In this document: piece after piece, positions 3,885-59,517 of the stretch
Numbering within the stretch: the first letter of the stretch is position 1
Layout of the letters: the number at the start of each line of letters is the position of its first letter
Source of the DNA: an uncultured Gammaproteobacteria bacterium
GTDB taxonomy: Bacteria; Patescibacteriota; Patescibacteriia; UBA9934; CAZDDW01
DNA length: 64,000 nucleotides
Assembly (NCBI GenBank): GCA_964504365.1
Contig: CAZDDW010000005.1
Location: 1,630 to 65,629 of the forward strand
Direction of reading: 5' to 3'
Translations under genes and position numbers: made by a program
Notes under the pieces: model-generated
What the model was told of the DNA's origin: nothing
Seen by the model: only the letters and a program-made list of their open reading frames with translations
Databases searched by the model: none

Positions 3885-4370
3885 TTAGAAGCAGGAGTCG
3901 GTTCGGAGTGTACAGAATCGGCGTATACCTGGCAGGTGAGCCAATGGGACGATCAGTAGGAACAGGGCGCCACAGGCCAGGGAACAGAGTGGGACGTTGA
4001 GAAGGCTGAGGAAGAGCAGGGCACCACTGACGGTCATGGCTTCTGGTACAGCAAGCCTTAGATAGGTCAGCATGAAGCCGATCGGTATGACTGATCCGGT
4101 GATCAAAGCCGATCCGAAATGCTGTAATTGGAAGTCGGTCATCTCAGTAACACTCATTGCGGCTTGGAGACCAAGGAAGATTCCATAGCCACAGACCATG
4201 GCCGCAACAATGTCCAGTGAGCGATGCCACATGATCGCTTCCGGGTTGATCCAGTTGTGCGGGTAGCCGATGAGGTGCCCGGCAAGCAGGCTGACGACGA
4301 ACATGAGCCCGGCGACGATGAGTAGAAGAGTGGTAGACAAAAGCCAGTATTTGAACGAGCTGATGCGCAT
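3885..4370 (-). CDS. hypothetical integral membrane protein (4-5 TM)
   Basis: 161 aa, hydrophobic throughout. Confidence 0.55.
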   Translation of the reverse strand: MRISSFKYWLLSTTLLLIVAGLMFVVSLLAGHLIGYPHNWINPEAIMWHRSLDIVAAMVCGYGIFLGLQAAMSVTEMTDFQLQHFGSALITGSVIPIGFMLTYLRLAVPEAMTVSGALLFLSLLNVPLCSLACGALFLLIVPLAHLPGIRRFCTLRTDSCF

Positions 4371-8290: not shown

Positions 8291-8312
8291 GTTTGATTTC
8301 TTTCGAAACATA

Positions 8313-8554
8313 GCGGAACCCTTCAGGGTTCCATTTTGTTTAGCCGGCCACGGATGACTCGGACATTCTTTTTGTGAGAAGCACTCGGCCTATTCGTAGA
8401 ATGATTAAAGAATGTTGTCAGGCCTCGTTCGGGTTCCGCCGGGACCGCCACCGTTAGTTGTAATACGAGATAATGATGTGGGCCCGGCTCCACATGTTCT
8501 CACAAAAAGAATATCCTCGTCATTTATATCTGACGATCAGAAAAGTGGCCGGCC
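8313..8554. repeat. ~210-bp TIR element (GCCGGCCAC...GTGGCCGGCC) with fused upstream terminator hairpin, copy 1
   Basis: near-identical copies at 27855-28300 and 41855-42090; internal inverted repeat ACATTCTTTTTGTGAGAA / TTCTCACAAAAAGAATAT. Confidence 0.8.
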
Positions 8555-8600: not shown

Positions 8601-8903
8601 CTAGTCTTCGATCGGGATAGTGCAGAATCCTTCGGATTCGCGCGGCCCATCGAAGCTCAGCACGCCGAAAAACGGCTTGTTGTTGTGGGTGCCGAAGATC
8701 AGACCGCGACGATCAGGGAGGAGATGGTCGGTTCCATGGATTCTGACCGATACACTCTTCCAGCCGGTAGGATCAGTTTCGGATCCAGGTGGAATGAGTG
8801 AGATCATGATCGGAGCATCCATGTCCAGCGTTGCCTTGAGGTCGACCATGCTGTGGAACGTGTGCGAGATTCGTGTTGGGAATCGAACTGTATCTGGACT
8901 CAA
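8601..8903 (-). CDS. hypothetical small protein (GC-rich islet), probable TTG start after AAGGAGG
   Basis: ORF 8601-8939; SD aaggagg then attcca TTG; minus-strand TTGACA-17-TATTGT promoter overlapping kef promoter. Confidence 0.4.
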   Translation of the reverse strand: MSPDTVRFPTRISHTFHSMVDLKATLDMDAPIMISLIPPGSETDPTGWKSVSVRIHGTDHLLPDRRGLIFGTHNNKPFFGVLSFDGPRESEGFCTIPIED

Positions 8904-8973
8904 TGGAATCCTCCTTTGAAAACAGACAATATCATACACACCCCCTCATGTCAAGATATGCTATAATTAATCC

Positions 8974-10639: not shown

Positions 10640-10897
10640 ATGAATGATGTAAATATTTGCCAATCATGCGGCATGCCAATGAAGGAGGAAGTGGACTACG
10701 GGAAGACTGAGGATGGGAGTCCGAGCTATGAGTACTGTGCTCATTGTTTTCAGGAGGGGAAATTTACTTTTGAATGTGGATCAGTGGAGGAGTTTGCCGA
10801 ACATGTGCTTGAGGCAATGGCTGGATCTGAGGAAGCACCTGAAATGGACAAAGAAGAAATGTTGGTTGTTTTGAAAGGGTTGGGGAGGTGGAAGTAA
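10640..10897 (+). CDS. zinc-ribbon domain small protein
   Basis: 85 aa; CxxC...CxxC (CQSCGM ... CAHCF). Confidence 0.5.
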   Translation: MNDVNICQSCGMPMKEEVDYGKTEDGSPSYEYCAHCFQEGKFTFECGSVEEFAEHVLEAMAGSEEAPEMDKEEMLVVLKGLGRWK

Positions 10898-10898
10898 A

Positions 10899-10970
10899 AA
10901 AGTAGAAAGTAGAAGGTAGATAGTAGAAAGATTCAAAATCTTTCTACTTTTAACTTTCTACTCTCTACTA
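10899..10970. repeat. palindromic array of GTAGAxA heptamers (copy 1)
   Basis: agtagaa agtagaa ggtagat agtagaa ag - loop - inverted copies; related arrays at 38006-38083 and 40392-40478. Confidence 0.8.
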
Positions 10971-10974
10971 AAAA

Positions 10975-12101
10975 CAACAAAAAAACAGGACAAATGTCCT
11001 GTAGAAAGTACTCGAGCCCAGGGGCAGCTAACGACGTCGTCGTTAGCGCCCGCTGGGCTCTTGAGGCTGCAGGCCAAGGGTCGGCCTGCGAGGGTCGGTT
11101 TGTTGTCACCGACAGGTCATGTCAGAGCTGGGACTCCGCGGCATGTGCGTAGCCGCGGTTGTATGTGCCAGGAGCACTAATCGAAGCCGTCGATCCACCA
11201 GTACCACATCGTGATACCTCCTCGAGGATGAACATGCAGTGACCGGCCCGTTACGTGGGCGGCGCGCGTCGTCGGTTCGTGGGCGCGCCGCCGCCGTCGG
11301 GGGTGCCGGTCTTGGTTCTTGCTTCTTCAGAAAAAGAGATCAGGGCATATCGGAGCCCCAGGCCGACAGTGGAGTCGCCTTGACTCCTCTGAGCCCGTTC
11401 ATGCGCAGCTGTCATTGTTGGCTGTCTTTTATCAAAGCCTAGCCAGCTGTTAACGAACGAGCTACCGTCTCTCGTAGAGGATCAGCATTCTGCACTCCTT
11501 GGTGCGGTTATTTGCGCCGTGTCCTCGGTGGCGCTCATACTCCTGAGGGGTTGCTGTGGCAAACATGTGCGCTAGCCACGTCGCGCGCGGGCTCACCCCG
11601 CAACGCATCAATAGCCAAAGTGACTCGGAAATCGACGCATGTCACCTCCGTCCTGCACGTCGGCAGGACCATCTTGCCCCTTGGTCCGGGGCTGACCTCG
11701 ATCCCACCTGCCCCGTTGTCCCGGGATCAGGTGCGTGCCCGGCAACCGTGCCAGGCAGGAGCGGCCGCAGGCGGCGGCGGTGGGGGTAGAAGTTCCAGAA
11801 CTCCCCATCGCCGCACACCTGCGACACACTCGTCGTCCACCGGGTAGGTCACCCGGTTCTCCGGAGCGCAGCGCTCGATCAGCGGGCTCATCTCGCCCGC
11901 CGCGCGTTGCGAACCATTGATCTCACCAGCTGTGTCTCGGCGGTCTTGCCGCCGTCAGCCAGTATCACCGGTGTTTTAGGCGGGTTGATCCCCGCGGTTT
12001 ACCGGTTGTTGTTGTGGCCCCGCTGGCCCAGCTCTTCGCCAGCGGATACCGATCAAAGGAACGCACGATCAGCGCGGATGTGTCGCCACCTCCGGAATCG
12101 T
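10975..12101 (-). ncRNA. GC-rich (~65%) ~1.13-kb transcription unit without convincing ORF: candidate large structured ncRNA (alternative: decayed pseudogene)
   Basis: minus-strand TTGACA-17-TATATT promoter at 12108-12136; minus-strand intrinsic terminator caggacatttgtcctg + U-run at 10971-11001; only short overlapping ORFs in all six frames. Confidence 0.4.
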
Positions 12102-12194
12102 GAAGGTAATATAGCACAAAATAGTGCATATGTCAACCCTCAGTCCTAGAAAAAGGCTTATTTTAGTCAAGAATTAAGACCCTGTGGAAAACTC

Positions 12195-17129: not shown

Positions 17130-17194
17130 GTTGACATAAAGGAGTTTTTCAATTAAGCTGATTTCTCAGCTCTTTTTTGTTAGGAGAACAGATC

Positions 17195-17965
17195 ATGCCT
17201 GATCCATATATCAGCATTACTGACTTCACGACCCGAGAACAAGTACTTGAGATGTTGCAGGTACTCATCAGGGCCCAGGGTGCCAGGCAAACACACAAGC
17301 TTGGTGTTGGGGTGATGATGAGTCACAAGACTCTGAATGGGTTGCCAACCAAGTGGGCCGATGTTTTTCCGCACAACGAAGATGTTGCTGGAATTTTCGT
17401 AGATCATCCCTTGGCCTTTGGTACACTCCACTACGCAGACTTCAAAGGGATCGACGTGGCAGCCAACCTGGCTCAGGCAACTGGGTTTGGCGGGCCGAAC
17501 ATGCATGCCTTGCAACTGGACATGATTTGGCCGGATTCGCAGGTGCTGATTGACTACCGGATCAGATATCCGAAAATCAAGATCATCTTGCAGATCAACT
17601 CGCGTTCGCTGGACATGGTTGACAACGACCCGCGCAAGCTCTTGCGCGTTCTACGTGCCTACAACACGACCGTTGATTACGTGCTCTTGGACAAGAGTAT
17701 GGGTCGCGGTCAAGGTATGCAGGCCGAAGTACTCATGCCGTTTGTAGAAGCGATCGTCATGCACCGGTCTGATCTGGAGATCGTGGTGGCTGGCGGGCTT
17801 GGTCCCGATACCATGCACCTGGCCGCACCGCTTGTTGAGCGTTCTCAGCGCCTGAGTTTCTGTGCACAGGGCCAGATGAGGGCCAGTGGCAATGCCTTGG
17901 ATCCGATCGAATGGGACCGGGCAACAGAATATCTGCGCCAGTCAGTGGCGCTGCTCAGGAGGTAA
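17195..17965 (+). CDS. TIM-barrel protein resembling phosphoribosylanthranilate isomerase (TrpF-like), GC-rich islet
   Basis: YVLLDKSMGRGQG...VVAGGLGPDT...LSFCAQGQMRASGNALDP matches the TrpF C-terminal phosphate-binding pattern (VLLD..GG.G / AGGL.PDN / GLD..SGVE..pG.KD); promoter TTGACA-17-TAAGCT at ~17118-17150. Confidence 0.4.
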   Translation: MPDPYISITDFTTREQVLEMLQVLIRAQGARQTHKLGVGVMMSHKTLNGLPTKWADVFPHNEDVAGIFVDHPLAFGTLHYADFKGIDVAANLAQATGFGGPNMHALQLDMIWPDSQVLIDYRIRYPKIKIILQINSRSLDMVDNDPRKLLRVLRAYNTTVDYVLLDKSMGRGQGMQAEVLMPFVEAIVMHRSDLEIVVAGGLGPDTMHLAAPLVERSQRLSFCAQGQMRASGNALDPIEWDRATEYLRQSVALLRR

Positions 17966-18132: not shown

Positions 18133-18624
18133 ATGGCCAACAAACATAGACAATTCACAAAATTTTATAAGGCGAACATAAACCGAATCTATCGATTCGT
18201 GTTTTTTCGTGTAAATGATCAGGATATTGCAGAAGACCTGACCAGTGAAATTTTCATGAAAGCGCTTAATGCTTTTGATCGCTACGATGTTAAACAGTCT
18301 CGCTCAGCCTGGCTCTATGCAATCGCTCGCAATCATTTAATAAATTATTATCGAGACAAAAAAGAAACTATCGATATCGATAAAATTGAATTTGAGTTGG
18401 TTGGTGAAGACGGTCGAGATACAATGGAAAAGCAGTCAGCAGTTGAAACACTTAAACGAGCGTTGAATAAATTATCAGGTCATGAGCAGAAACTTGTAAC
18501 CATGAAGCACCTTGAGGGGTATACATATGCAGAGATGGCAGATGTTCTTGGAAAATCTGCTGGCTCACTCAAGGTCGCTACACACAGGGCTCTGATCAAG
18601 CTCAAGACCTTAATCGCGCGATAA
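18133..18624 (+). CDS. ECF-type RNA polymerase sigma factor (sigma-70 family region 2 and 4)
   Basis: 163 aa; region 2 DLTSEIFMKAL...SAWLYAIARNHLINYYR; region 4 HTH YAEMADVLGKSAGSLKVATHRA. Confidence 0.85.
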   Translation: MANKHRQFTKFYKANINRIYRFVFFRVNDQDIAEDLTSEIFMKALNAFDRYDVKQSRSAWLYAIARNHLINYYRDKKETIDIDKIEFELVGEDGRDTMEKQSAVETLKRALNKLSGHEQKLVTMKHLEGYTYAEMADVLGKSAGSLKVATHRALIKLKTLIAR

Positions 18625-19296
18625 GTGATATCACAAAGTATGTCTATTAAACAACAATTAAAAAAGTTACAACGTATGGCAAAACCAAGTAAGGGTTTTA
18701 AGAAAGAGTTGTATTCTAAATTATCTAATCAAATGCCAGCTGCAGAAAAAGCTTCGGTTGGTCTGAAGTATGCTGCAGCCGGAACACTTGGGTTAGTGCT
18801 TCTCTTGGGTGGTACCAGCGCTTATGCATACGGCAGTCCTGAGGTTAGTGAAGGTCACTTCTTACACCCGATCAAAGATGGGATCGAGCGTGTTGAGGGC
18901 GAGTTGCGTGACGGTAAGCCAGAAGGACGAGCCGGACATCATTTGAAAATGATGAAGCGCCGTTTGGACGAGGCTGACAAGCAAGAGTTTGAAGAACGCA
19001 AAGCTGAGTTGCTTGAACGTGCTTCTGAGGAACTTGGTCTAACAGAAGAAGAGCTCAAGGACGCCATGTTTGATCCTGAGCGGCGAGCCGAGATTATTGA
19101 AGAACTTGATTTAGAGAACGAGCGTTTTCTCGGAATGATCGGTCCACCTCCACACATGATGCCACCAGAAGTGTCAGAGAGAATGCATGAGAAGGGTGGG
19201 GATATTATGGAGAACGAAGATCTGAGTTGGGATGAAAAGCGGAACCAGATGCACGAGCGCATGCGCGCGCATTGGGAGGAAATGAATCAGGAATAG
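18625..19296 (+). CDS. putative membrane-anchored anti-sigma factor
   Basis: immediately follows ECF sigma (stop/start abut); single TM AAAGTLGLVLLLGG; charged coiled-coil ectodomain. Confidence 0.5.
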   Translation: MISQSMSIKQQLKKLQRMAKPSKGFKKELYSKLSNQMPAAEKASVGLKYAAAGTLGLVLLLGGTSAYAYGSPEVSEGHFLHPIKDGIERVEGELRDGKPEGRAGHHLKMMKRRLDEADKQEFEERKAELLERASEELGLTEEELKDAMFDPERRAEIIEELDLENERFLGMIGPPPHMMPPEVSERMHEKGGDIMENEDLSWDEKRNQMHERMRAHWEEMNQE

Positions 19297-19384
19297 GGAA
19301 TGACGCCCGCAAGGGCGTCATTTAAATTAAAACACCCCTACCGTTTCGTCCGGTGGGGGTTGTTGTGTTCTTGCGTTCGACGGC

Positions 19385-20119
19385 CTAGTCCTTGTCGTTG
19401 TCCTCGGGGATGAAGTCGACGGCGTACAACCGGACCTTGATGTCGTGTTCTCCGGTTTGCTCGACTTTGACCTCGACTATTCCGGCCCAGGCTTGGTTGA
19501 GCAGCAGGATCAGTTCTGTTGCCTGTTCCAGGTTCTCGAAGCCGTAGTTTTCGAGGTCTCTGAATTTGACCGAGAAGTCGTTGCATCCGCCGCGACGAGT
19601 GTTCTCGATCATGTGACTGAGTTCTTCCGGCAGTGTCCACCAGCCGTCGGGCTCGAGAGGGAACCAGCCCTTCTCTTCGGCAAAAGCCTGCAGTTCTTCC
19701 GGGATGCACTCCATCAGCTCCCGAACCATGTTCTCCCAGATTCGCTCGGCCAGGATCTGATGATGCCACTGCTCGTAGTGGGCGGCGGCCAAAGGCTTGG
19801 CCTTGACGTAGTCTCTCCAGCCTTTTTCGAACCAGTCCTTGAGGAGCTGAAGAGCCATCTGTGCCGGCTCGACTCCAGGTGCCAGTTGGATCCCCATGGT
19901 ATTTTCCAGAGTCTCCTCAGGAGTAAGCCGGGCCGCCCACCTGTTTTCGTTGTCCTTGGACAGGGTGATGGTCAGTTCAGAGCCGTGGGAGAGGACCACG
20001 ATTTCGGCTTGCGAGCACTCGGGATCCGCTGTTTCGGGGTGACGCACGTCGAAGATTGTTTCGGGAGGGAAGACGTATCCAGTAATCTTGCGAACCCAAT
20101 CCAAATCCAATTGTTCCAT
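19385..20119 (-). CDS. paralog A of GC-rich domain-shuffled family (shared N-domain, distinct C-terminal region)
   Basis: AEIVVLSHGSELTITLSKDNENRWAARL matches D AEVVVAGRNVTIELAEITPNSWAAWEV and B ADIVIDDIEYRLCLRLDSGAWRSHVF; GGAG SD; co-transcribed with B. Confidence 0.6.
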   Translation of the reverse strand: MEQLDLDWVRKITGYVFPPETIFDVRHPETADPECSQAEIVVLSHGSELTITLSKDNENRWAARLTPEETLENTMGIQLAPGVEPAQMALQLLKDWFEKGWRDYVKAKPLAAAHYEQWHHQILAERIWENMVRELMECIPEELQAFAEEKGWFPLEPDGWWTLPEELSHMIENTRRGGCNDFSVKFRDLENYGFENLEQATELILLLNQAWAGIVEVKVEQTGEHDIKVRLYAVDFIPEDNDKD

Positions 20120-20158
20120 GATTGTTCTCCAGTTTCTTGGCCTAGAAAGGACCGGTTT

Positions 20159-20791
20159 CTATCGGTTCAGTAGTGCCTGGCGGAAAGCCTCGAGGACCTC
20201 GCGCGCGGGTGTTGTGGAATCAAAGCCGTATGTACCCCAGTCTTCATCTGTCCCAAGTAGCGTGGCCTCCCATGGTCCAATGATCCCGTGTGACCTTCTG
20301 AAGCTGAAGCTCACCAGCTCGTACATTTGGACCGTGACCAGGAAGGTGTGCTCGAGTTCCGGGTGTGGCATGACTCGATGGTCTCCACCTTGCCAGACCT
20401 GTCCGACCAGAGCATCGAGCTCATCGCGGGTGATCAAGGGCAGGGCCGGCACTTCGGAATGGTTGGGCGTCGTCGTTTCCTGTTCTCGTCTATCGAGGGC
20501 AAAGGAGGCCAGTTCTCTGATGGCTCCGCTGAGTATTTCGTAGGGGTTGCAGGAACCAAATTTATCGGGGACGACCGTGGGATCCTCGTCGGTATTTGCG
20601 TCGTTGATGGTTGCTGAGAAGACATGACTTCGCCAAGCACCAGAATCGAGTCGTAGACAAAGTCGATATTCGATATCATCGATTACAATGTCAGCGTAGT
20701 AGGCATCAGGTTGTCCAAGGCAACCAACCTTCTTTACGTAGCTAGTGAAGGCGTCTCGGATCTCATTTTCGAAGAAGTGTGAATTCATCAT
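20159..20791 (-). CDS. paralog B (shared N-domain + shared C-domain)
   Basis: start MMNSHFFENEIRDAF; C-terminal ITRDELDALVGQVW...TTPAREVLEAFRQALLNR aligns with C and D; promoter TTGACA-17-TATCTT at 20847-20875 (minus). Confidence 0.6.
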   Translation of the reverse strand: MMNSHFFENEIRDAFTSYVKKVGCLGQPDAYYADIVIDDIEYRLCLRLDSGAWRSHVFSATINDANTDEDPTVVPDKFGSCNPYEILSGAIRELASFALDRREQETTTPNHSEVPALPLITRDELDALVGQVWQGGDHRVMPHPELEHTFLVTVQMYELVSFSFRRSHGIIGPWEATLLGTDEDWGTYGFDSTTPAREVLEAFRQALLNR

Positions 20792-21035
20792 TGTCTCGGA
20801 TTGTTGCGAGAATTTTATTGTTGAAATGACCGGAAAATTACTAAGCAAGATAACACAAAAATAAGCTCGTGTCAAGGCAAGCAAGCTTATTTGTAGGGTG
20901 TTTCTTGAAATTAAAGAACCCGCAGCGTTGCACTGCGGGTCTGAGCAAAGAAAGGGCCTTGGGGTTGGTCAAGAATACCTGCTCATTGAGATTGTTCGAT
21001 CAGCAATTATTACTAACAAATCTCAAGGTCGCTAT

Positions 21036-21722
21036 CTAGCCCATCAGTCTCTTCTTCAACCCAACCAGGATTTCTCTGGCCGAGGTGCTGTGATCCGTGG
21101 CACTTTCCAGGAATTTGCTCTGTGGCTCGTGGGCTCTCCACTGGCCGAGCGAAACGCTCATCTCGATGGTCATCAGCTCGAACATGAAGACATCGGCCTT
21201 GAACACCGGAGCTGCATCCGCACCTTCGTTCCTGGTAGCACGCACGTCATCGAAGACCTGCCTGACAGCAGTGTCGAACTGCTCCAGGGTCATGGGCGGA
21301 GGCGCGGGCAACTCTTCGCTCACGGGCGCTGCCGGCCGGCTTGCCTTCCTTGGTGCCGGGCTGGTGCTCTTGCCTTCGCGCAACGGGATGCGGGTGAGCA
21401 CACCATCTTCGGCAATCACACCTTCGGGCGTGACCTGGAAGAGCCAATCGTTGATCTGGATGTAGCACTGACGATCACGGTGACCGTACCAGAGATCGAC
21501 TACACCGTAATGGGCCGAAACACTGGCCGCGCTCAGGTACATGTATGGATCGCGGCGGGTTCCGCTGCCTCTTTCGTAAGGCTGTCCGGTGGATCCCTTG
21601 GAGTACCGACGATGCCGCCGTCTGGCGTCGTAGACATGATCCGGTTTGAGCGTGGTCGTCTGACCCTTGTGCGATGCGTGGATGTTCGGGGCTCGTGCTT
21701 GTGTTTCTCCGAAAGTCGGCAT
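21036..21722 (-). CDS. paralog C (distinct Arg-rich N-region, Pro-rich linker, shared C-domain)
   Basis: MTLEQFDTAVRQVFDDVR...STSAREILVGLKKRLMG aligns with D LSLDQFTAAIERVFNDVR...TTPYDVLKALKAKLMG; promoter TTGACA-17-TATGCT 21782-21810 (minus); terminator 20917-20947. Confidence 0.6.
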   Translation of the reverse strand: MPTFGETQARAPNIHASHKGQTTTLKPDHVYDARRRHRRYSKGSTGQPYERGSGTRRDPYMYLSAASVSAHYGVVDLWYGHRDRQCYIQINDWLFQVTPEGVIAEDGVLTRIPLREGKSTSPAPRKASRPAAPVSEELPAPPPMTLEQFDTAVRQVFDDVRATRNEGADAAPVFKADVFMFELMTIEMSVSLGQWRAHEPQSKFLESATDHSTSAREILVGLKKRLMG

Positions 21723-21862
21723 GGCTAGCTCCTTTGATTGGGTTGCAAGAATCGTGTTAGGAATGAACAGAAATAGATATCAGCATAGCATGAATAAGCC
21801 CGTTTGTCAAGGCAATTAAAACACCCCCACCGTTTCGTCCGGCGGGGGCGTTTGTTCTGGCT

Positions 21863-22555
21863 CTAGCCCATCAGTTTTGCTTTCAGGGCTTTGAGCACGT
21901 CGTACGGCGTGGTATCAGCTGACTCGGCGTGGACGCGGGTATTGCTCACAGGCTCGCGGGCCAGCCACTTGCCGTGCCAGAGACTGAGCTCGATGGTAAC
22001 TGGATCCATCATGACCACCTCAGCCATGAAGGTTGTTCTTTCCAGCCTTGGGCCTCGAACGTCGTTGAAGACCCGCTCGATTGCGGCTGTGAACTGGTCC
22101 AGGCTGAGCTTGTCTTGAGCAACCGGCTCAGGCTCGTTCTTGGGCAAGGGCTTGGCCGTCGTACTTGTGGCCGATGCCTTTTTCCGCCTGTTCGTTGGCG
22201 GTGGCACCCAGGGCGTAACCGCACCACGCATTGGTGCACTTGGCTGGGAGGGTCGAGGACTGGGCTGCGGACGTCCACCAAATTCAAGTACTGTTTTCAG
22301 ACTGACCAAAGCCATCCTGGATGACGACTGACCAGAAACCAGTGCTGGGTAAGGGTTGCCTGGAGCAACTTCCCAAGCAGCCCAGCTGTTAGGAGTTATC
22401 TCAGCTAGCTCGATCGTAACGTTTCTGCCAGCGACAACGACTTCTGCTTGAGGGATCCAGTTGCTACCAAGCGCGATGGTGTGTATTGAGACAACGTGCG
22501 CAAAGATCGCCCTGACTTCTGCTTCGAACCACCTGAGTATTTTGCTCTGGCTCAT
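21863..22555 (-). CDS. paralog D (shared N-domain, Pro-rich linker, shared C-domain)
   Basis: start MSQSKILRWFEAEVRAIF; promoter TTGACA-17-TATGCT 22596-22624 (minus); terminator 21815-21855 nearly identical to terminator of A (19335-19375). Confidence 0.6.
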   Translation of the reverse strand: MSQSKILRWFEAEVRAIFAHVVSIHTIALGSNWIPQAEVVVAGRNVTIELAEITPNSWAAWEVAPGNPYPALVSGQSSSRMALVSLKTVLEFGGRPQPSPRPSQPSAPMRGAVTPWVPPPTNRRKKASATSTTAKPLPKNEPEPVAQDKLSLDQFTAAIERVFNDVRGPRLERTTFMAEVVMMDPVTIELSLWHGKWLAREPVSNTRVHAESADTTPYDVLKALKAKLMG

Positions 22556-22674
22556 GATTGATTCCTGTTGGTTGATTGAATAGAACGAAGAAACCAGCAT
22601 AGCAATTTTTGTGCCGCTTGTCAAGCTTATACACTAGTTGTTTAAGCTTGATTATGTTAAACTGAATCCATTGT

Positions 22675-24054
22675 ATGCAGCTCAAACTCTACAACACTCT
22701 CACAAGAAAAAAAGAGATATTTAAGCCAATAACTAAGGGAAAGGTTGGGTTATACACATGTGGCCCGACTGTTTATTGGTTTGCTCATATTGGGAATATG
22801 CGTTCTTATATTTTTGCAGATCTGTTGCGTCGCACGCTTGAGTATAATGATCTCAAGGTCAAGCAAATAATGAACGTGACTGATGTAGGACATTTAACAA
22901 GTGATGAAGATGAGGGTGAAGACAAGATGATTATTGCTATGCGTCGTGAAGGAAAGTCGGCTTATGATGTTGCTGGGTTTTATGCGACTAAGTTTTTTCA
23001 AGATTTGAAGTCGTTGAATGTTAAAGAAGCAACTGAGTATCCGCGAGCCACTGATCACATTAAGGAGCAGATCGATTTGGTCAAGAAATTAGAAGAGAAA
23101 GAATTTACTTATCGCACTGATGATGGGATTTATTTTGATACTTCGAAGCTGAAAGATTATGGCAAGTTGTCTAAGCAGTCGGCTAAGGACAAGAAAGCTG
23201 GTGCGCGGACTGAGATGCGTGACAAAAAGAATCCAACTGACTTTGCTTTATGGAAGTTTTCGCCAGAAGGTGAGAAGCGAGAAATGGAATGGGATTCGCC
23301 TTGGGGAGTTGGTTTTCCTGGTTGGCATTTAGAATGTTCAGCCATGTCTGTTAAGTATCTTGGCATCCCGTTTGATATTCATACTGGCGGTGTGGATCAC
23401 ATTGCTGTACATCATGAGAACGAGATTGCACAATCTGCCGGTGCTTTTGATGAATTGCAGGCAAATGTTTGGATGCACAACGAATTCATCGCTGTTGATG
23501 ACACTAAAATGTCAAAGTCGCTTGGTAATTTGTATTTGGTTGATGATTTAGAAAAGAAAGGTTTTGAGCCATTGGCTTATCGATACTTTTTGCTCGGGGC
23601 ACACTATCGGACAAAGCAGAATTTTACTTGGGAAGCTGTCGAGGCTGCACAGAATGCTTTGAATAATTTGCGCGACGCAGTGCGAGATTGGGACAAACCA
23701 AAGGGTGCTTGTGCCGAGTGTGAGAAGAGGTTCTTAAGCGCAGTTAATGATGACTTGGATATGCCTAAGGCTTTGTCGATAGCTTGGAAATTAGTTCAGA
23801 AAGAAGAAAAGCCAACTGCGGCACGAGCTGCTTCGTTATTAAAGTTTGATCAGATTCTTGGGCTCAGGCTTGATAAATATGTGGCCAAGCCTCTTAAAGT
23901 TCCAACCAAGGTTAAGGTGTTAGTTGAAGCTCGAGAAAAAGCACGCGAAGAAAAAGATTTTGCCAAAGCCGATGAAGTTCGAGACAAGATCGAAGAGGCT
24001 GGGTTTATTGTTGAAGACGCTGCAGACGGCAGCAAGCTGCGCGAGAAACACTAA
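22675..24054 (+). CDS. cysS: cysteine--tRNA ligase
   Basis: class I HIGH (FAHIGNMRSY) and KMSKS (KMSKSLGN) motifs; Zn-binding Cys CGPTVY / HLECS. Confidence 0.95.
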   Translation: MQLKLYNTLTRKKEIFKPITKGKVGLYTCGPTVYWFAHIGNMRSYIFADLLRRTLEYNDLKVKQIMNVTDVGHLTSDEDEGEDKMIIAMRREGKSAYDVAGFYATKFFQDLKSLNVKEATEYPRATDHIKEQIDLVKKLEEKEFTYRTDDGIYFDTSKLKDYGKLSKQSAKDKKAGARTEMRDKKNPTDFALWKFSPEGEKREMEWDSPWGVGFPGWHLECSAMSVKYLGIPFDIHTGGVDHIAVHHENEIAQSAGAFDELQANVWMHNEFIAVDDTKMSKSLGNLYLVDDLEKKGFEPLAYRYFLLGAHYRTKQNFTWEAVEAAQNALNNLRDAVRDWDKPKGACAECEKRFLSAVNDDLDMPKALSIAWKLVQKEEKPTAARAASLLKFDQILGLRLDKYVAKPLKVPTKVKVLVEAREKAREEKDFAKADEVRDKIEEAGFIVEDAADGSKLREKH

Positions 24055-24077: not shown

Positions 24078-24596
24078 ATGCCTAATCCGTTGCGGAAAAA
24101 TACAGCCGAAGAAGTAAAGCCAGAGGTTGCACCCGTTGCTAAGCCTGAAGTTGAGGTAAAAAAGGAGGTTGCTGAAAAACCAGTGGAAGCGCCTAAGGAA
24201 GTTAGAAAAGACGATGAGGTTGCTGAGGTGTCACGTAAGGCTGCGCCGGCCCAAGCGAAGGATGATCAGGTAAGTGTTCTTCCTGAAGAAGACGCGCTGA
24301 CCGAAGAGGTTGAGGATATTTTAGAAGAAGATTTGGACGAAATGTATCATCAGTTACCACCGGACAAACAGCTTGAATTCAAGACTAAAGGTGAAGAAAC
24401 GGTTGGAATGATTACTCAGATGGTTGAATCAACTAAAGTGAAGAGTGGTAAGATTGTTGGCTGGATCAAGGGTTGGTTAAAGTTGATTCCAGGAGTAAAT
24501 AAATTTTTCTTAGAACAAGAGGCAAAAATAAAAACAGATAAAATTCTCTTACTTGCTGATGAAGAAAAAAAGAAGCGGGGAGAGATGATTGATTAA
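24078..24596 (+). CDS. hypothetical acidic protein with amphipathic C-terminal segment, upstream of T4CP-like ATPase
   Basis: 172 aa; KPEVxxKxEV repeats; overlaps next gene by 8 nt. Confidence 0.5.
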   Translation: MPNPLRKNTAEEVKPEVAPVAKPEVEVKKEVAEKPVEAPKEVRKDDEVAEVSRKAAPAQAKDDQVSVLPEEDALTEEVEDILEEDLDEMYHQLPPDKQLEFKTKGEETVGMITQMVESTKVKSGKIVGWIKGWLKLIPGVNKFFLEQEAKIKTDKILLLADEEKKKRGEMID

Positions 24597-27159
24597 CATG
24601 ATTTTGCAAGCACAATTTGGTATTGAACAAACGGCTGAGCTAGGGTTAGCTCCTGACCTAACTGGTCAGGCCACATCCTTGCTTCCGTTTTTGATCGTTC
24701 TGGCTGTCCTGGCAGTTATTTTTATTATTGTTTTATTTTCAGTACGTGCTTGGTTACGACGTCGAACTCGCGCCCATGGAGCCTCGTTTGAGCGTGTTGT
24801 TATTCTGGTGGCTATTCCAAAGTTTAAGAGTCAAGAAGATACTAAAAAGGAAGGCACACAGGATGTTCAGCAGCTTATTGATGATGCGGAAAGTTTTTTT
24901 GCAGCTGTTGGTGGATTAAAATCTCAAAAGGGAATTGTTAAATGGTTTACAGGTCGCAATGATGCAATGACTTTTGAAATCGTCACCCATGAAGGGCTGA
25001 CTAAATTTTATTTTTCTGTTCCGCGATCGGTAAAAGATTATGTTGAAGAGCAGTTGTTGGCCCGTTATCCAGATGCACATATTGAGGAAATGGAAGATTT
25101 TAATATTTTTAATCCAACCGGAGCGATTGTTGGTAGTTATCTAACTTTCAAGCGCCCATACGCCTTTCCGATCAAGACTTATAAGAAAATGGAGAACGAT
25201 CCGCTGGATGGTCTAACAAATGCACTTTCTAAAGTGCCTAAGGATGCTGGTGTGGCGATTCAGTTTGTTGCTCGTTCAGCGCGGCCGGAATGGCGTAAGC
25301 GTGGTTTGAAAATTGCCCGTAGCATGCAGCAAGGAATGAAAATGGAAGATGCTATTAAGGGTAAGAAGAAAGGGAAGAAGGGTGTTGTTCAGGATCTGTT
25401 TGGTTCAACCAAGCCAGAACAACAAGTCGAAAAAACTCCGTATCGATTGTCACCGTTGGAAGAAGAGGCGGTAAAGGGCCTTGAGGAAAAGGCGTCCAAG
25501 GCTGGTCTGAGTTTGAATGTGCGCATTGTTGCTTCATCACAAAATGCAGCTGCTGCTCAACAAGCGTTAAATAATGTCATTTCTTCTTTTGCCCAATACA
25601 ACGTTTATCAGTTTGGAAATAATTTTTCAAAAAAGGTTCCGCGTTCTGCAAAACGGATTGTCCGTGATTTTATTTATCGACATTTTGATGAGAAGTTTAA
25701 GATTGTTGTTAACGCGGAAGAGATGGCTAGTTTGTGGCACTTGCCACTACCAACCACAGAAACACCGAACATTCACTGGCTTGGTGCTCGCCGTGCATCT
25801 GCACCGCCAACTGTGCCAAGCGAAGGTGATTTGTATTTAGGAATAAATGAGTTCCGTGGAATTAAAAAGAAATGTTACATGAAACGCGCCGACCGGCAGC
25901 GACACATGTATATCATTGGTAAATCTGGTACTGGTAAATCTGTTTCCATGCGCAGCATGATTGTTCAAGATATTAAGAATGGTGAAGGTGTTTGTGTTGT
26001 TGATCCTCATGGTGATTTGGTAGAATCCGTTCTCGGACACATTCCTGAAGAACGCATTGATGATGTTATTGTTTTTAATCCAAGTGATTTAGAACGTCCA
26101 ATGGGATTGAACATGTTAGAGGCTAAGGGTCCGGATCAGATGGACTTTGTGGTGCAGGAGATGATTGCTATTTTCTATATGTTGTTCCCACCGGAAATGA
26201 TTGGGCCATTGTTTGAGCACTACATGCGAAACGTTATGCTGACCTTAATGTCTGACCAGGAAAATCCAGGTACGATCGTTGAAATTCCACGCATGTTCTC
26301 TGACCAAACGTTTGCTGATGGTTGGATTAAGAAGGTTAAAGATCCGGTTGTTCGAGCTTATTGGGAAAAAGAAATGGCCAAGACTTCAGATTTTCACAAG
26401 TCTGAAATGCTTGGTTATCTGATTTCCAAAGTTGGTCGTTTTGTTGGAAACGAAATGATGCGTAACATCATCGGACAATCAAAATCAGCTTTTGATTTTC
26501 GTGAAGTGATGGATAAACAAAAGATTTTACTGGTGAATTTGTCTAAAGGTAAAACTGGTGAGGTCAACTCAAGTTTGCTCGGAATGATTATTGTTTCTAA
26601 GTTGCAGATGGCCGCTATGGGCCGGGCAGACATGCCAGAAGAAGAGCGCAAAGATTTTTACTTGTACATGGATGAGTTTCAGAACTTTGTCACTGAATCG
26701 ATCGCCACGATTCTGTCTGAGGCTCGTAAGTATCGTTTAGATCTGATCATGGCTCACCAGTATTTGGGACAGTTGATTAGTGAAGGTGGAAAGACTGAGG
26801 TGCGTGATGCAGTGCTTGGTAACGTGGGAACAATGATGGTTTGTCGTGTTGGTGTAGAAGATACAGAGGTTTTGGCCAAAGAGTACGAACCAGTATTTTC
26901 TGGGTATGATTTGGTAAATGCAGACAAGTTTACTTGGTACGTAAAGATGATTGTGGATAATTCTACACAAAAGCCATTTACCATGAAAAGTCCTTGGACA
27001 GACAATGGAGACACTAAGTTGGCAGAGTCAATCAAGGAGCTTTCCCGCTTAAAATACGGTCGAGACAGGGGAGTTGTTGAGGCTGATATTATGGAACGCA
27101 CGCAGCTTGGAGCAACGAATACCGCACCTCCGCCACCAACTGGGGAGAGTACGGCCTAG
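24589..27159 (+). CDS. VirD4/TraD/TraG-like type IV coupling-protein family P-loop ATPase (membrane anchored)
   Basis: 856 aa; N-terminal 2 TM; Walker A IIGKSGTGKSV; Walker B FYLYMDEFQNF; C-terminal LDLIMAHQYLGQL motif typical of TraG/VirD4. Confidence 0.6.
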   Translation: MINMILQAQFGIEQTAELGLAPDLTGQATSLLPFLIVLAVLAVIFIIVLFSVRAWLRRRTRAHGASFERVVILVAIPKFKSQEDTKKEGTQDVQQLIDDAESFFAAVGGLKSQKGIVKWFTGRNDAMTFEIVTHEGLTKFYFSVPRSVKDYVEEQLLARYPDAHIEEMEDFNIFNPTGAIVGSYLTFKRPYAFPIKTYKKMENDPLDGLTNALSKVPKDAGVAIQFVARSARPEWRKRGLKIARSMQQGMKMEDAIKGKKKGKKGVVQDLFGSTKPEQQVEKTPYRLSPLEEEAVKGLEEKASKAGLSLNVRIVASSQNAAAAQQALNNVISSFAQYNVYQFGNNFSKKVPRSAKRIVRDFIYRHFDEKFKIVVNAEEMASLWHLPLPTTETPNIHWLGARRASAPPTVPSEGDLYLGINEFRGIKKKCYMKRADRQRHMYIIGKSGTGKSVSMRSMIVQDIKNGEGVCVVDPHGDLVESVLGHIPEERIDDVIVFNPSDLERPMGLNMLEAKGPDQMDFVVQEMIAIFYMLFPPEMIGPLFEHYMRNVMLTLMSDQENPGTIVEIPRMFSDQTFADGWIKKVKDPVVRAYWEKEMAKTSDFHKSEMLGYLISKVGRFVGNEMMRNIIGQSKSAFDFREVMDKQKILLVNLSKGKTGEVNSSLLGMIIVSKLQMAAMGRADMPEEERKDFYLYMDEFQNFVTESIATILSEARKYRLDLIMAHQYLGQLISEGGKTEVRDAVLGNVGTMMVCRVGVEDTEVLAKEYEPVFSGYDLVNADKFTWYVKMIVDNSTQKPFTMKSPWTDNGDTKLAESIKELSRLKYGRDRGVVEADIMERTQLGATNTAPPPPTGESTA

Positions 27160-27854: not shown

Positions 27855-28300
27855 GTCAGAAACGTAGCGGAACCCTTTAGGGTTCCATTTTGTTTTTGGC
27901 CGGCCATGAGGACTCAGACATTCTTTTTGTGAGAAACACTCGGCCAGGACTAGGTAAAGTGAAAGAAAGATATCAAGGCCTCGTTCGATGTTCCGCCGGG
28001 ACCGCCACCTTTATGTGATTAAACGAGATGATGGTGTGGGCCCGGCTCCACGTGTTCTCTCAAAAAGAATATCCTCGTCCTTTAATATGGCCGGCCACCC
28101 ATCTTGCCGTAAGAATAAAATGACGAAGGGTTTTGAATTGAGGTACGATCGGAGGCCGGGCTGCCAATATTTCTTCGAGGTCCCCACAACGGTAATCGTC
28201 CGGCCGACGCCGAGTGAGGCCCGATATCATCCCTTCATCACACCACGAATAGGCCGAACGCTACCACAATCAAAACCCTGAGTCATTCAGTGGCCGGCCA
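27855..28300. repeat. TIR element copy 2 with fused terminator hairpin and a ~200-bp nested insertion bounded by GGCCGGCC
   Basis: module 27898-28098 matches copies 1 and 3; extra module 28099-28300 ends in a second GTGGCCGGCCAATAAAG end. Confidence 0.75.
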
Positions 28301-28421: not shown

Positions 28422-29999
28422 TTGATTGGAGAAAGAATGTCCCGTTACATGCACATCACCATCGGTATCCTGATCACAATGAGCCTGGCCGCAACAGCCG
28501 TGGCCAAGCCGCGCATCATGCGCGCGGAAAATTTCCATCGTACCTGCGACCTCGAGTCCTTCCAGAACTACAACGACCTGCAGCTGGAAACCGAGCATTT
28601 CACTCTGGGCGCGCCGATCTGTATGGGCGAAGGCTCTGTGGCCTACGACCCGGATTATCTGAGTAGCGCCGATCGTCTGGACAGAAGGCTGCTTCACGAG
28701 GAGATTCGAGTGGTCAGCCAGGCTTACCTGGATGTACTCGAGCGCATGGTCCATGCCAACTGGGGTCGTGACGATTACGCCGACGCCTACCTGGGCTCGT
28801 CCATCCGTCAGCTACGTCTAGGCATGTGCTTTCCACACCGCACCTATGAGGTAGACGATGGCAGCGTACGCATGTGGGCTCACTTCGTGTCCGATCCGAG
28901 TGGCGCAATCAAGGGGCCGAGCTACCTCAACCTGCTTCTCGAGCGAGCGGTCGAACTGCGTGACCGTGATGCAGTCGAGGCCTTGCTCTATCTGTTCACG
29001 GTCATTCGCAAGAATGATCCCATTAGCGCAGCCAGCAACTGCGAGTACTTGCAGAACAGCCTGTTCGAGAACGAGCTGGCCGGCTACCTCTACGCCGGAG
29101 ACTTGGAGGCGGCTGATGCTTTCGTCCAGGAATTCGGTTTCCTAGCCGACTCAAGTGCCTTCTCGGTCTACGAGTTCTATAGTGATCGTGTCTGGGGTGA
29201 CCAGGTCAAGATGGTCGCCAGTGACATCTACGAGGATCACCTGCAGGCTGGTGACTATGATCTGGCCGATGCTTTGGTCAAGCACTACGGACTGGCTCCA
29301 CCACAGTGCGCCACCAGCATCCAGGAAACCATGCGCCAGCACTTCAGGCAGGCCTTCCTGGACTACGATTTGGATACTCCGGATGAGGTTCTGGAGATGA
29401 TGGCTCGTTACGACTACGACGTCAAGATGGTCGAGTGGGCTCGTGAGTGGGGCTACGCCTACGCTGGCTACGCCCTGATGGAGCCATGTTCGGAGCTCGA
29501 ACCACGTTCGGATGAGCTGGACTGCCGATGGCAGATCGAGCTGCGTCTGGATGACATGCCCATGGCCAGTAGGATCCATGTGGTCGAGGCTTCGCTCAGC
29601 TGGTACAGCGGAATTACTGTCGACGATCTGGTGTACAAGCATCAGCTGATGAAGGCCCTCAAGGTCGACATGGACCTGGTCATGCCCAAGCTGGCCGAGG
29701 AGCTCAAGGAGAATGCTCAGCTGGCTTTCGGTGATCTCCTCGATGGGATGGATCATTGGCAGTACACCACGGCCATCTACTACGCCATGGAAGAGATGGG
29801 TTACGAGCCTTTGCTCGATTACCCGAATCCGGTGTTCAGCTGCGACATTCTGCCCTACGGGAACTCGTCGCGCGAGTCCGGGATCTGGTTCCTCCAGTGC
29901 GCTGGCGGCATCGACTACGTCGAGCTCATTGCCACTGGCGAGCAGCACGGCGAGGACTACCGTCAGGCCGTAGAATCCGGTCAGACCTTCATGGACTGA
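28422..29999 (+). CDS. hypothetical secreted protein (signal peptide), GC-rich islet
   Basis: 525 aa; N-terminal signal ITIGILITMSLAATAVA; acidic, Tyr/Asp-rich; long antisense ORF 29151-30002 judged a GC shadow. Confidence 0.55.
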   Translation: MIGERMSRYMHITIGILITMSLAATAVAKPRIMRAENFHRTCDLESFQNYNDLQLETEHFTLGAPICMGEGSVAYDPDYLSSADRLDRRLLHEEIRVVSQAYLDVLERMVHANWGRDDYADAYLGSSIRQLRLGMCFPHRTYEVDDGSVRMWAHFVSDPSGAIKGPSYLNLLLERAVELRDRDAVEALLYLFTVIRKNDPISAASNCEYLQNSLFENELAGYLYAGDLEAADAFVQEFGFLADSSAFSVYEFYSDRVWGDQVKMVASDIYEDHLQAGDYDLADALVKHYGLAPPQCATSIQETMRQHFRQAFLDYDLDTPDEVLEMMARYDYDVKMVEWAREWGYAYAGYALMEPCSELEPRSDELDCRWQIELRLDDMPMASRIHVVEASLSWYSGITVDDLVYKHQLMKALKVDMDLVMPKLAEELKENAQLAFGDLLDGMDHWQYTTAIYYAMEEMGYEPLLDYPNPVFSCDILPYGNSSRESGIWFLQCAGGIDYVELIATGEQHGEDYRQAVESGQTFMD

Positions 30000-47051: not shown

Positions 47052-47582
47052 TTACTGGCCGAGACAGGTCAGGTAGACCGATCGTTCGGCTGCCAGGATC
47101 GGGTCGTCGATCTGCATCTCATGTGGACAGGCTTCTACTTGGCTGACCTCGGTTTGACACTGGTGTTCTACTTCGGGCAGGGTCAGGTGAGCACCAGCGT
47201 GAACCAGACTGGCCGCGATCCGGCAGAGCTCTTGTTGTTGTCCGTCATCACTGTCGAATAGCTCGACATTGACGATGATCTCGTCCGGAAATGTGTCTGG
47301 GATCGCTTCTTCACTGATTCGTTGGTCAACAGGCAGGCCGCAGGAGATGATACTCTGCTCAGCCGCGCTGATTGCCTGACTCAGTTTGAGCGAGGTCGGC
47401 TCAGGCCACTCATGCTTGAAACGCTGAGTTGCCAGGTCCTCGAGGTCCTTGGCCGTGTCCAAAGCCAGGTCCAGGCTCTGACATTGATCCGAGTCGCATT
47501 CGGCAAACCAATGCCAGTCATCGAAGACACAGCCACTGGTGCCGAGTGTGCAGACAAGTAAGATGAAAAAGATCGGACGCAT
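47052..47582 (-). CDS. hypothetical acidic Cys-containing lipoprotein (GC-rich islet)
   Basis: signal + lipobox LGTSGC; 176 aa. Confidence 0.5.
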   Translation of the reverse strand: MRPIFFILLVCTLGTSGCVFDDWHWFAECDSDQCQSLDLALDTAKDLEDLATQRFKHEWPEPTSLKLSQAISAAEQSIISCGLPVDQRISEEAIPDTFPDEIIVNVELFDSDDGQQQELCRIAASLVHAGAHLTLPEVEHQCQTEVSQVEACPHEMQIDDPILAAERSVYLTCLGQ

Positions 47583-58407: not shown

Positions 58408-59517
58408 CTAGAAGCGGAAGGTGGGTCCGAACTGGACACCAGCCCAGAAGCCGCGGCGGTCGCCACCGACTGTGGCCTCCAGGTTCAGGCCGAACTTGTC
58501 GGTTAGCATCAGGTCGATTCCACCGATGAGCACACCACCAGGCGCGGTCATCTCAGCACCGAAGCTGATCAGGAACGCGCCTCCGACGTAGGGTTGAGCC
58601 TTCTTGTCGCCGAAGCGATATCGGGCGCCAACACGGGCATGGGGCATGAGCATCAGCCAGCCACCAAGGTCAGACTCGAAGCGGACCATGTTGGCACCGC
58701 CACCGAGATCCAGCTCCAGACCCTTGACCAAGCGGACGTGTCCTCGCAGGCCGAAGTTCAGGTACTGGGCACCGTGTGCCTGGGCAAAGCCGATCACGCC
58801 GAGAGAAAGACCACCAGGACTTGGCTTGTCACCGTTCCCGTTGGTCACTGGCGGATCCGGCTCACGGTAGACCTGGACCAACAGTTTGTCACCACTGACA
58901 TTGACCACTCGCGTGAATACGCCTTGAGTGGTTGCATACTGGATTACGTGGATGCCTGGTCGAATCGGGATCGTGCCCGATACGCCAGGGTTGCGTGCTG
59001 TGCCATCCAAGGAGAAGTAGAGCACATCATCGTCGATCAAGTCGTAGTTGAGCTCGATCAACGGAAGTGCCATCACTTCACCCTTGGCAATCAGGAAAGC
59101 CTGCTGCGGATCTGGTGGGTAGTCAGTGTCCCAGGGCAAGGTCGGGTCGATGATCAGTGCACGTCGAAAGTTGTTCAGCGCGCCCTCGCGATCACCAGCG
59201 TTGAAGCTGGCCATGCCTTGGAAGTAGAACAGGTTGATCAGGGTATCTCGATCAATGTCCAGGTCGTTCATGCAGGACAGAGCAGTCATTGCCCGTCCGA
59301 GCGTGCCGCGGGCATTCTCGTCGCTCAGAGCATCGATCAGCTCGATTCCTCGAGCCAACTCAGCGGCAATGTCCAACCCGATCAGAGACGAGTCAAGGCA
59401 GGTTATTTCCTGGAAATCGCCGATGATCTGTACGAACTCTGGCGGATCTTCACTCTCCTGTGCTCCCACAGGCAAGCAGAAACTGAACAGTGCGAGAATT
59501 GCAGTATATCGCAACAT
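58408..59517 (-). CDS. secreted protein with N-terminal TPR-like region and Gly/Ala-rich beta-rich C-terminal domain ending in Phe (OMP beta-barrel-like), GC-rich islet
   Basis: signal MLRYTAILALFSFCLPVGAQ; C-terminus ...GVQFGPTFRF; alternating hydrophobic pattern in last ~200 aa. Confidence 0.5.
   Translation of the reverse strand: MLRYTAILALFSFCLPVGAQESEDPPEFVQIIGDFQEITCLDSSLIGLDIAAELARGIELIDALSDENARGTLGRAMTALSCMNDLDIDRDTLINLFYFQGMASFNAGDREGALNNFRRALIIDPTLPWDTDYPPDPQQAFLIAKGEVMALPLIELNYDLIDDDVLYFSLDGTARNPGVSGTIPIRPGIHVIQYATTQGVFTRVVNVSGDKLLVQVYREPDPPVTNGNGDKPSPGGLSLGVIGFAQAHGAQYLNFGLRGHVRLVKGLELDLGGGANMVRFESDLGGWLMLMPHARVGARYRFGDKKAQPYVGGAFLISFGAEMTAPGGVLIGGIDLMLTDKFGLNLEATVGGDRRGFWAGVQFGPTFRF

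Follow-up and report, generated by a model that had tools for sequence, protein, structure and literature searches.

What kind of system is encoded by four small genes arrayed on the minus strand beside the cysteinyl-tRNA synthetase gene (cysS) of an uncultured Patescibacteria member? The genes, designated A, B, C, and D, lie in a stretch of 64,000 nucleotides of contig CAZDDW010000005.1 (assembly GCA_964504365.1), which was analyzed as a whole and is referred to as the window. An initial annotation of this DNA had described the array as domain-shuffled paralogs in foreign-looking DNA, had compared it with toxin-immunity, anti-defence, and phage-type arrays, and had regarded it as the strongest candidate for a previously undescribed system. 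All four open reading frames (ORFs) were found at the coordinates reported in that annotation (Table 1). Our analysis bears out this observation but only part of its interpretation. It is very probable that the array represents a real, clade-restricted gene family, built from one domain, that occupies a fixed chromosomal slot and is remodelled between species.

Domain X in the array genes

The initial annotation had recognized an N-terminal domain shared by A, B, and D and a C-terminal domain shared by B, C, and D. Pairwise comparison with BLASTP confirmed these pairings, with 36.5% identity over 104 aa (61 bits) for the C-termini of C and D, 25% identity over 108 aa for those of B and C, and 34% identity over 73 aa for the N-termini of A and D. 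Weak cross-matches were also detected between N- and C-terminal regions. When profiles built from 17 ‘N-type’ and from 12 ‘C-type’ domains were compared, hhalign returned a probability of 98.4% (E 6e-15) over 88 collinear columns. Since the two profiles match, the N- and C-terminal domains are, on profile comparison, not two shuffled domains but one family of about 85-90 aa, designated X, to which gene A adds a second module, designated Y. Every copy of X scored 55-92 bits against the family hidden Markov model (HMM), including 81 and 85 bits for the two domains of D, and an alignment of nine copies was collinear from end to end with an invariant Trp. The same HMM detected no further copies elsewhere in the window.

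Only two columns of X, W51 and L75, are near-invariant, and the consensus is mostly hydrophobic (F, V, A, I, L), which we interpret as the lack of a catalytic signature. A to D contain no stretch resembling a transmembrane segment (maximum 19-residue Kyte-Doolittle values of 0.86-1.31), and no signal peptide was seen by eye. The copies of X are joined by Pro-rich linkers that are probably disordered. The motif G[AT]VxPWVPP is found in the linkers of D, P0025, and P0029, GAVTPWVPP of D recurring as GAVKPWVPP and GTVKPWVPP in the latter two and as the variant GPVKPIIPP in P0019. Conserved basic stretches, RRRKRSR among them, are present in the linkers of three-domain members of the family; otherwise the linkers show no conservation. 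The N-terminal region of C (140 aa) was detectable neither as X nor as Y, had no homolog in any of the loci fetched, and is species-specific.

Predicted structure of domain X

The second X domain of D (residues 149-230; positions 21866-22111) was modelled with AlphaFold2 from the nine-sequence alignment. The model was of high confidence (predicted local distance difference test, pLDDT, 96.9; predicted template modelling score, pTM, 0.86) and predicts a helix, five strands forming an antiparallel sheet, and a closing helix. Foldseek, which was run for X only, returned nothing at E<=1e-3 from PDB or from the viral structures of BFVD, the best match being frataxin (E 0.67). The structural neighbours listed for X, with a score of unstated kind, were the type III secretion chaperone Spa15 (5.9), ribosome hibernation factors (5.0-5.8), a DUF2170 family protein (5.7), the Rhs immunity proteins TriX (5.5) and TriTu (4.8), CyaY (5.0), and Cap2, E2, and UEV domains (about 5). 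We read the model as a generic two-layer alpha/beta sandwich without demonstrable relative.

Frataxin and X have the same order of secondary-structure elements and a conserved Trp each (in strand 4 of X), and A and B are acidic, which would fit X being a diverged frataxin/CyaY-like domain with a housekeeping role in the handling of iron or Fe-S. However, comparison of X with an alignment of CyaY and human frataxin, two sequences that were entered by hand, gave an hhalign probability of 5.4%, TM-scores between frataxin and X were about 0.46, and X lacks a conserved acidic ridge. In addition, multi-copy, fast-evolving, and clade-restricted genes are the opposite of what a housekeeping factor should be. 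Neither profile nor structure comparison gave a significant match to the frataxin/CyaY family (PF01491). Homology to frataxin was therefore rejected as largely refuted, and the corresponding function is extremely unlikely.

A second possibility is that RNA or DNA is bound by the basic, disordered linkers and by the Arg-rich N-terminus of C, and that X is an alpha/beta module resembling a double-stranded RNA-binding domain (dsRBD) or a hibernation factor. D and C are basic, the linker of D has an isoelectric point (pI) of 11.8, and the basic linker motifs are conserved. In contrast, B and A are strongly acidic (net charges of -17 and -26, respectively), and no basic surface residue is conserved in X. 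The topology of X differs both from that of HPF (beta-alpha-beta-beta-beta-alpha) and from that of dsRBD, which has three strands, and the family varies too quickly in copy number and sequence to have a core role in the ribosome. Binding to nucleic acid or to the ribosome is accordingly improbable in our view.

Distribution of the family

An exhaustive HMMER search of 1.84 billion representative proteins with the X profile returned 23 matches at E<=1e-3, of which about 13 are genuine. These are six proteins of this species and its nearest relatives, together with P0019, P0020, P0021, P0023, P0025, P0029, and P0033. The remaining matches come from long proteins of 472-3050 aa, which align to the profile in several short and incomplete segments; P0028, the example inspected, proved to be a repeat protein. 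When 5.8 billion protein clusters were searched with a word index, only the query proteins themselves and one relative each (P0002 and P0004) were recovered. There were no matches in a word-indexed protein search with an alignment of 23 domains, and no relatives in a scan of genome contigs with protein A.

The initial annotation had recognized no motif in the proteins. In agreement with this, A to D had no match in Pfam, NCBIfam, PHROGs (nothing below E 0.3), PADLOC (no defence-protein model at E<=1), or PDB sequence profiles, and a literature search returned nothing relevant. Searching 50,697 phage records with D and A by tblastn revealed no viral homologs, and a pattern scan of IMG/VR gave no confirmed match.

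CysS places the genome in Candidatus Uhrbacteria (Patescibacteria, or candidate phyla radiation, CPR), the best match among GTDB species representatives being 76% and the others at most 64%. Among 80 genomes recovered via cysS, only the closest, L021, whose cysS is 76% identical, has a member of the family. The family is restricted to one narrow clade of marine Candidatus Uhrbacteria.

A fixed slot beside cysS

The family sits in a fixed chromosomal slot between cysS and a gene pair encoding an extracytoplasmic function (ECF) sigma factor and a putative anti-sigma protein. Apart from P0033 (see below), in the relatives with visible flanks, comprising at least six related genomes, members containing X occupy the same slot and are divergent from cysS. 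The gene orders are cysS, P0020, g256 in L012-L015 (including TARA Oceans contigs); cysS, P0021 (X-X), a Y-only gene, an X-X-X gene (320 aa), and the anti-sigma-like gene in L016-L020; cysS, P0025, and the anti-sigma-like gene in a 63-kb contig; X-X-X and cysS in L021; cysS, P0029, and another X gene in L011; and cysS and P0019 (X-X-X) in L008-L010. The presence of the family in the same slot in several related species fits vertical descent.

The backbone around the slot (mem185, sigma, anti-sigma-like, cysS, g172, VirD4-like, g205, and dnaX) is conserved in about 25 Uhrbacteria genomes, among which only the closest carries X. More distant genomes have either no gene in this gap or a different one. 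In L030, L033, L034, L040, and L042-L044, the slot between the anti-sigma-like gene and cysS holds a gene for a secreted repeat protein of 247-657 aa, which has a signal peptide and repeated ‘VGDxIHxxGE’-like units and is co-directional with the sigma gene pair. Because the slot also holds this secreted protein in distant Uhrbacteria, the junction beside cysS appears to be a recurrent site of gene turnover. The distant single-domain member P0033 is located about 9 kb from cysS, after a surface protein. The latter, a Cys-rich protein of 1861 aa encoded directly upstream of P0033, the most divergent X member (L101 1367-6952; GCA_043812755.1), combines a signal peptide with an internal HEIGH (HExxH) motif resembling that of metalloproteases and a hydrophobic anchor at its C-terminus.

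The constant neighbourhood might indicate that the array proteins are substrates, effectors, or secretion chaperones of the VirD4/TrwB-like ATPase, acting in interaction with a host cell. The VirD4-like gene (DUF8128, TrwB_AAD_bind) is two genes away in every relative, and effectors often have disordered linkers and no Sec signal. However, the block formed by cysS, g172, the VirD4-like gene, g205, and dnaX far exceeds X in its distribution, as described above, and the adjacency is therefore non-specific. The fold of secretion chaperones also has an extra central helix. A link to the ATPase is very unlikely.

The other flank was considered in the same way. L012, the closest relative, lacks the ECF sigma/anti-sigma pair and still has an X gene, as do the other loci of the L012-L015 group, and the promoters of the array are of the sigma-70 type, which argues against membership of the array in the ECF regulon. 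The region upstream of the sigma gene was inspected by eye for an ECF-type promoter, and nothing usable was seen.

Remodelling between species

The initial annotation had described the array as rapidly shuffling. Over the 20.7 kb compared, the window is 100% identical to a JGI contig of 98.5 kb, and across the array it shares 99.95-100% identity with five additional contigs that represent the species in other samples. Since the six contigs are nearly identical, there is no variation of the array within the species, and remodelling takes place between species. In one contig of this species (L003 36-1415, corresponding to positions 22675-24054 of the window), the last 25 or so residues of CysS are wholly different, while DNA identity is 99.97% over the remainder of cysS and the array; this difference may reflect a breakpoint of recombination or of assembly at the 3' end of cysS.

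The modular character ascribed to the paralogs was borne out by the comparison of species, in which the domains are combined in different architectures. The number of genes (1-4), the number of domains (1-3), gene order, and the fusion of X to Y all vary. The window and L012 have CysS proteins that are 94% identical, yet they carry four genes and one gene, respectively. B is orthologous to P0021 and P0023, and A to P0004. The two domains of D are equivalent to domains 1 and 3 of the three-domain proteins, the long linker of D taking the place of their middle domain, and C has an X domain that clusters with the terminal ‘...KLMG’ subtype. The order is D-C-B-A in the window versus B-like, Y, D-like in L016. 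Because the domains cluster by position and subtype across species, the paralogs are old. The changes observed in the slot are duplication of genes and domains, loss of domains, fusion or fission of X and Y, and reordering.

The family also evolves faster than its flank. Nonsynonymous divergence (dN) was 0.4-0.9 for the family versus 0.04-0.15 for cysS. The ratio of dN to synonymous divergence (dS) was about 0.25-0.45 for the family versus 0.03-0.09 for cysS, these ratios being rough since dS was saturated. The gene family is real and under selection.

Module Y and its pairing with X

Y is an acidic module of about 144 aa that is fused to an X domain in A and P0004. According to matches with a Y HMM, it is encoded by a stand-alone gene in L007, L016-L020, and L102. 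The possibility that Y was a divergent X was rejected (hhalign probability of 1%), and a search of PDB sequence profiles with Y gave no match. In four genomes, a two-domain X gene is directly followed by a Y gene: B by A in the window, where Y is fused to X; P0021 by a stand-alone Y of 145 aa in L016-L020; P0023 by a stand-alone Y in L102; and P0002 by a stand-alone Y in L007. The fusion or fission of X and Y provides a Rosetta-stone hint that X and Y may work together.

These features are relevant to the toxin-immunity analogy of the initial annotation, in a form in which the array would be a cluster of orphan immunity, antitoxin, or anti-effector genes, X neutralizing the toxins of competitors or a toxic Y, and the paralogs covering several toxins. 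The paralogs are in tandem and their copy number differs between species, X is a small alpha+beta domain devoid of catalytic residues, the two-gene unit in which X-X precedes Y resembles a toxin-antitoxin-like pair, and evolution is fast. Against this interpretation, no toxin, Rhs, CdiA, or nuclease gene was present within about 10 kb of the array or in the visible flanks of relatives; no neighbouring gene codes for a large protein ending in a toxin domain (Rhs, CdiA, WXG100, LXG, and similar), and flanks of at least 10 kb on both sides in the window, together with those visible in relatives, showed only cysS, the ECF sigma pair, chaperone genes, the VirD4-like gene, and dnaX. A to D matched no known immunity family (SUKH, Imm, CdiI, and similar) and no toxin-antitoxin family in Pfam. 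Immunity proteins do not typically have two or three domains joined by long Pro-rich linkers, X occurs without Y in several genomes (L012, L008, and L021), and the array is invariant within the species. An immunity function is thus unlikely. None of the toxin-immunity, anti-defence, and phage analogies is supported, and the searches of PADLOC, PHROGs, phage records, and IMG/VR gave null results.

Base composition of the array

The GC content of the array genes is 53.7-59.7% versus 40-47% for neighbouring genes (cysS, sigma, dnaK, dnaJ, and VirD4-like). The array is thus GC-rich (54-60% versus about 43-46%), as the initial annotation had reported, its figure of 58-60% being slightly high for B. 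GC content at third codon positions (GC3) is 0.59-0.72 versus 0.33-0.45 in neighbouring housekeeping genes. This deviant composition, together with the absence of family homologs from more distant Uhrbacteria, could be taken to indicate that the block is a recently acquired foreign island carrying phage, plasmid, or host-derived cargo. However, GC3 is also high (0.47-0.73) in the family genes of related species, at the same slot, across CysS identities of 76-94%. No integrase or transposase was seen among the flanking ORFs and Pfam calls, and there is no tRNA gene within about 10 kb, which makes a recent island unlikely. Furthermore, the promoters follow the host consensus, nothing was found in phage records or IMG/VR, and about 10 other ORFs across the window share the GC3 bias. 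The foreign origin proposed in the initial annotation is therefore not supported, and recent acquisition is highly improbable.

Seven of the other GC3-rich ORFs (1504-2178, 3885-4370, 8601-8939, 17177-17965, 28422-29999, 47052-47582, and 58408-59517; GC3 0.59-0.74 versus 0.3-0.45 for housekeeping genes) were scanned and gave no significant Pfam match, one of them having a sub-threshold match to a tetratricopeptide repeat (TPR). ORF 17177-17965 has conserved, syntenic counterparts in relatives. It appears that the genome contains a separate class of GC3-rich orphan genes, of which the array is part. Acquisition by an ancestor of the clade, or a mutational or selective regime specific to the locus or to this class, is a possible origin of the bias. 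The GC3-rich codon usage of ORFs lacking Pfam matches, which extends to the family genes of relatives, bears on how orphan genes arise and may be the more important observation with respect to genome evolution.

Promoters and transcription units

The three promoters of the form TTGACA-17-TAT(G/C)(C/T)T reported in the initial annotation are present, each with an extended -10 TG and a match to 10 of the 12 sigma-70 consensus positions (Table 1). The -35 context TTGACAA was not common to all units, since B has TTGACAC. The pattern TTGACA-N17-TAnnnT occurs 16 times in the window versus 0.77 expected, and three of the six copies with an extended -10 belong to the array. Because the same pattern precedes tRNA-Glu, hrcA, and other genes, the array promoter is the ordinary consensus of the host, and the likeness of the three promoters was rejected as an array-specific trait. 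The terminators following A and D, reported as almost identical, share 88% identity over 42 nt. The positions of promoters and terminators delineate three transcription units, D, C, and B-A. The gap between B and A is 39 nt and includes a GGAG ribosome-binding site. The C promoter shares 87% identity with the P0020 promoter region of L012, and the B promoter and 5' untranslated region share 80% with those of P0021 in L016. These consensus signals suggest strong constitutive expression of the array. At the D locus, the JGI gene call P0001 is 100% identical to D, with a start 15 codons further upstream.

Table 1. Coordinates of the array genes, their domains and signals, and the flanking genes (window positions).
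Feature	Position	Strand	Description
Gene A	19385-20119	minus	244 aa; X domain, then Y module; pI 4.5
A, X domain	19820-20119	minus	residues 1-100; 72 bits against the family HMM
A, Y module	19385-19819	minus	residues 101-244 and stop codon; acidic
Gene B	20159-20791	minus	210 aa; pI 4.6; X (residues 1-97), 19-aa linker, X (residues 117-210)
Gene C	21036-21722	minus	228 aa; pI 9.0; 140-aa basic N-terminal region, then X
C, X domain	21039-21302	minus	residues 141-228; 92 bits against the family HMM
Gene D	21863-22555	minus	230 aa; pI 9.6; X, 53-aa Pro-rich and basic linker, X
D, first X domain	22277-22552	minus	residues 2-93; subclusters with domain 1 of the three-domain proteins of relatives
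D, linker motif GAVTPWVPP	22199-22225	minus	residues 111-119; regular expression and linker listing
D, second X domain	21866-22117	minus	residues 147-230; terminal ‘...KLMG’ type by domain clustering
Promoter of D	22596-22624	minus	TTGACA, 17 nt, TATGCT; extended -10 TG
Promoter of C	21782-21810	minus	TTGACA, 17 nt, TATGCT; extended -10 TG
Promoter of the B-A operon	20847-20875	minus	TTGACA, 17 nt, TATCTT; extended -10 TG
Terminator after D	21814-21855	minus	intrinsic
Terminator-like hairpin after C	20917-20941	minus	
Terminator after A	19325-19366	minus	intrinsic
ECF sigma factor	18133-18624	plus	conserved flank; Pfam Sigma70_r2 and r4
Putative anti-sigma protein	18625-19296	plus	role assigned by position only; no Pfam or NCBIfam match
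cysS	22675-24054	plus	conserved flank, divergent from the array; Pfam tRNA-synt_1e
VirD4/TrwB-like ATPase	24589-27159		DUF8128, TrwB_AAD_bind

Proposed function of the array

We tentatively propose, as a mechanism that falls somewhat short of being probable, that the X proteins act in the cytoplasm in a non-catalytic way, as binding or scaffold proteins. X would be a protein-binding or dimerization unit presented as beads on a string, tandem X domains could form a dimeric or pseudo-dimeric platform, and the short conserved basic or Pro-containing motifs of the linkers may act as docking sites. The B-type X-X protein and Y would form a complex. The high evolutionary rate would point to a fast-changing partner, which might be another organism, a phage, or the host cell of a likely episymbiont; this is the weakest step of the proposal. 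Taken as a whole, the reading that combines the description of the family with this mechanism is held with moderate confidence.

Several observations weigh against this combined reading. The binding or scaffold role is deduced from the architecture and from the absence of conserved polar residues, homology giving no clue to function. The X-Y complex is a prediction only, and the AlphaFold2 model of full-length A, obtained from two sequences, was poor (pLDDT 49) and reliable for secondary structure only. Expression is predicted solely from consensus signals, the dN/dS values of the family are rough for the reason given above, and the position of P0033 makes the slot non-absolute. Finally, the constancy of the array within the species fits uneasily with an ongoing arms race.

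A bolder and rather unlikely extension is that the X-X proteins and Y constitute an undescribed two-component system with a new fold family, which would mediate conflict or host interaction in the marine Uhrbacteria clade. It might be, for example, a new effector/neutralizer or toxin/immunity pair of a CPR episymbiont, diversified by cassette-like remodelling at a dedicated hot spot beside cysS. Of the candidate system put forward by the initial annotation, the part that stands is a rare, hitherto undescribed family with modular evolution and no match to known families.

CPR/Patescibacteria genomes are small, yet a large fraction of their genes is functionally uncharacterized, and little is known of the ways in which these bacteria cope with hosts, phages, and competitors. 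The locus offers a compact and well-delimited case, in which a new domain family that folds confidently in prediction and a partner module are remodelled at a single slot over short evolutionary distances. If the proteins do act between organisms, they would open a way to study how marine Uhrbacteria live as symbionts; otherwise, they are one more lineage-specific orphan family. Such families are common in CPR genomes, and X is confined to a few marine species.

Other elements in the window

Three further types of elements were noted in the window. An element of about 230 nt is present on the minus strand in three copies that are 74-87% identical (8300-8540, 27858-28098, and 41838-42076). Each copy folds into an imperfect hairpin about 45 bp long, after which comes a terminator hairpin (GGAACCC...GGGTTCC). 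Two of the copies have consensus sigma-70 promoters upstream (8926-8954 and 42334-42362, minus strand), and fragments of the element also match the related loci L012 and L016. The element, which matched no Rfam family, could be a small-RNA family or a MITE-like repeat (miniature inverted-repeat transposable element).

The region 11000-12100 (about 1.1 kb) has a GC content of 63-67% and no credible ORF, only overlapping ORFs in several frames. A consensus promoter with an extended -10 (12108-12136, minus strand) points into this region. No Rfam match was obtained, also with an E-value threshold, and the region could correspond to a large non-coding RNA or to a decayed GC-rich gene. Finally, palindromic purine-rich repeats (GTAGAAAGTAGAAGGTAGA... 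paired with its complement) form long intergenic hairpins at 10892-10969, 38045-38081, and 40387-40472, and are probably bidirectional terminators or repeat elements.

Comparison with known systems

The closest known systems include the alpha/beta subunits of actin-capping protein and the type III secretion chaperones Spa15 and SpcS. Frataxin/CyaY is like X in its element order and conserved Trp, and provided the top, non-significant Foldseek match in PDB, but X has a shorter first helix and lacks the acidic ridge, and frataxin is a single-copy housekeeping protein. The likeness of X to tandem RWD or UBC-like non-catalytic interaction domains is generic only, since strand count and helix arrangement differ, and there is no ubiquitin-like system near the array. 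As to a possible type II toxin-antitoxin pair, the B-A operon shows a two-gene layout that is conserved in the four genomes; no toxin or antitoxin match was obtained in Pfam or NCBIfam. The orphan immunity-gene clusters of polymorphic toxin systems share with the array small tandem paralogs on the same strand, a copy number that differs among related genomes, and non-enzymatic alpha+beta products that diverge much faster than the flanks. In contrast to these clusters, the array lacks both an accompanying toxin gene and any match to a known immunity family, encodes multi-domain proteins with Pro-rich linkers, is invariant within the species, and occupies a single fixed slot that was apparently inherited vertically.

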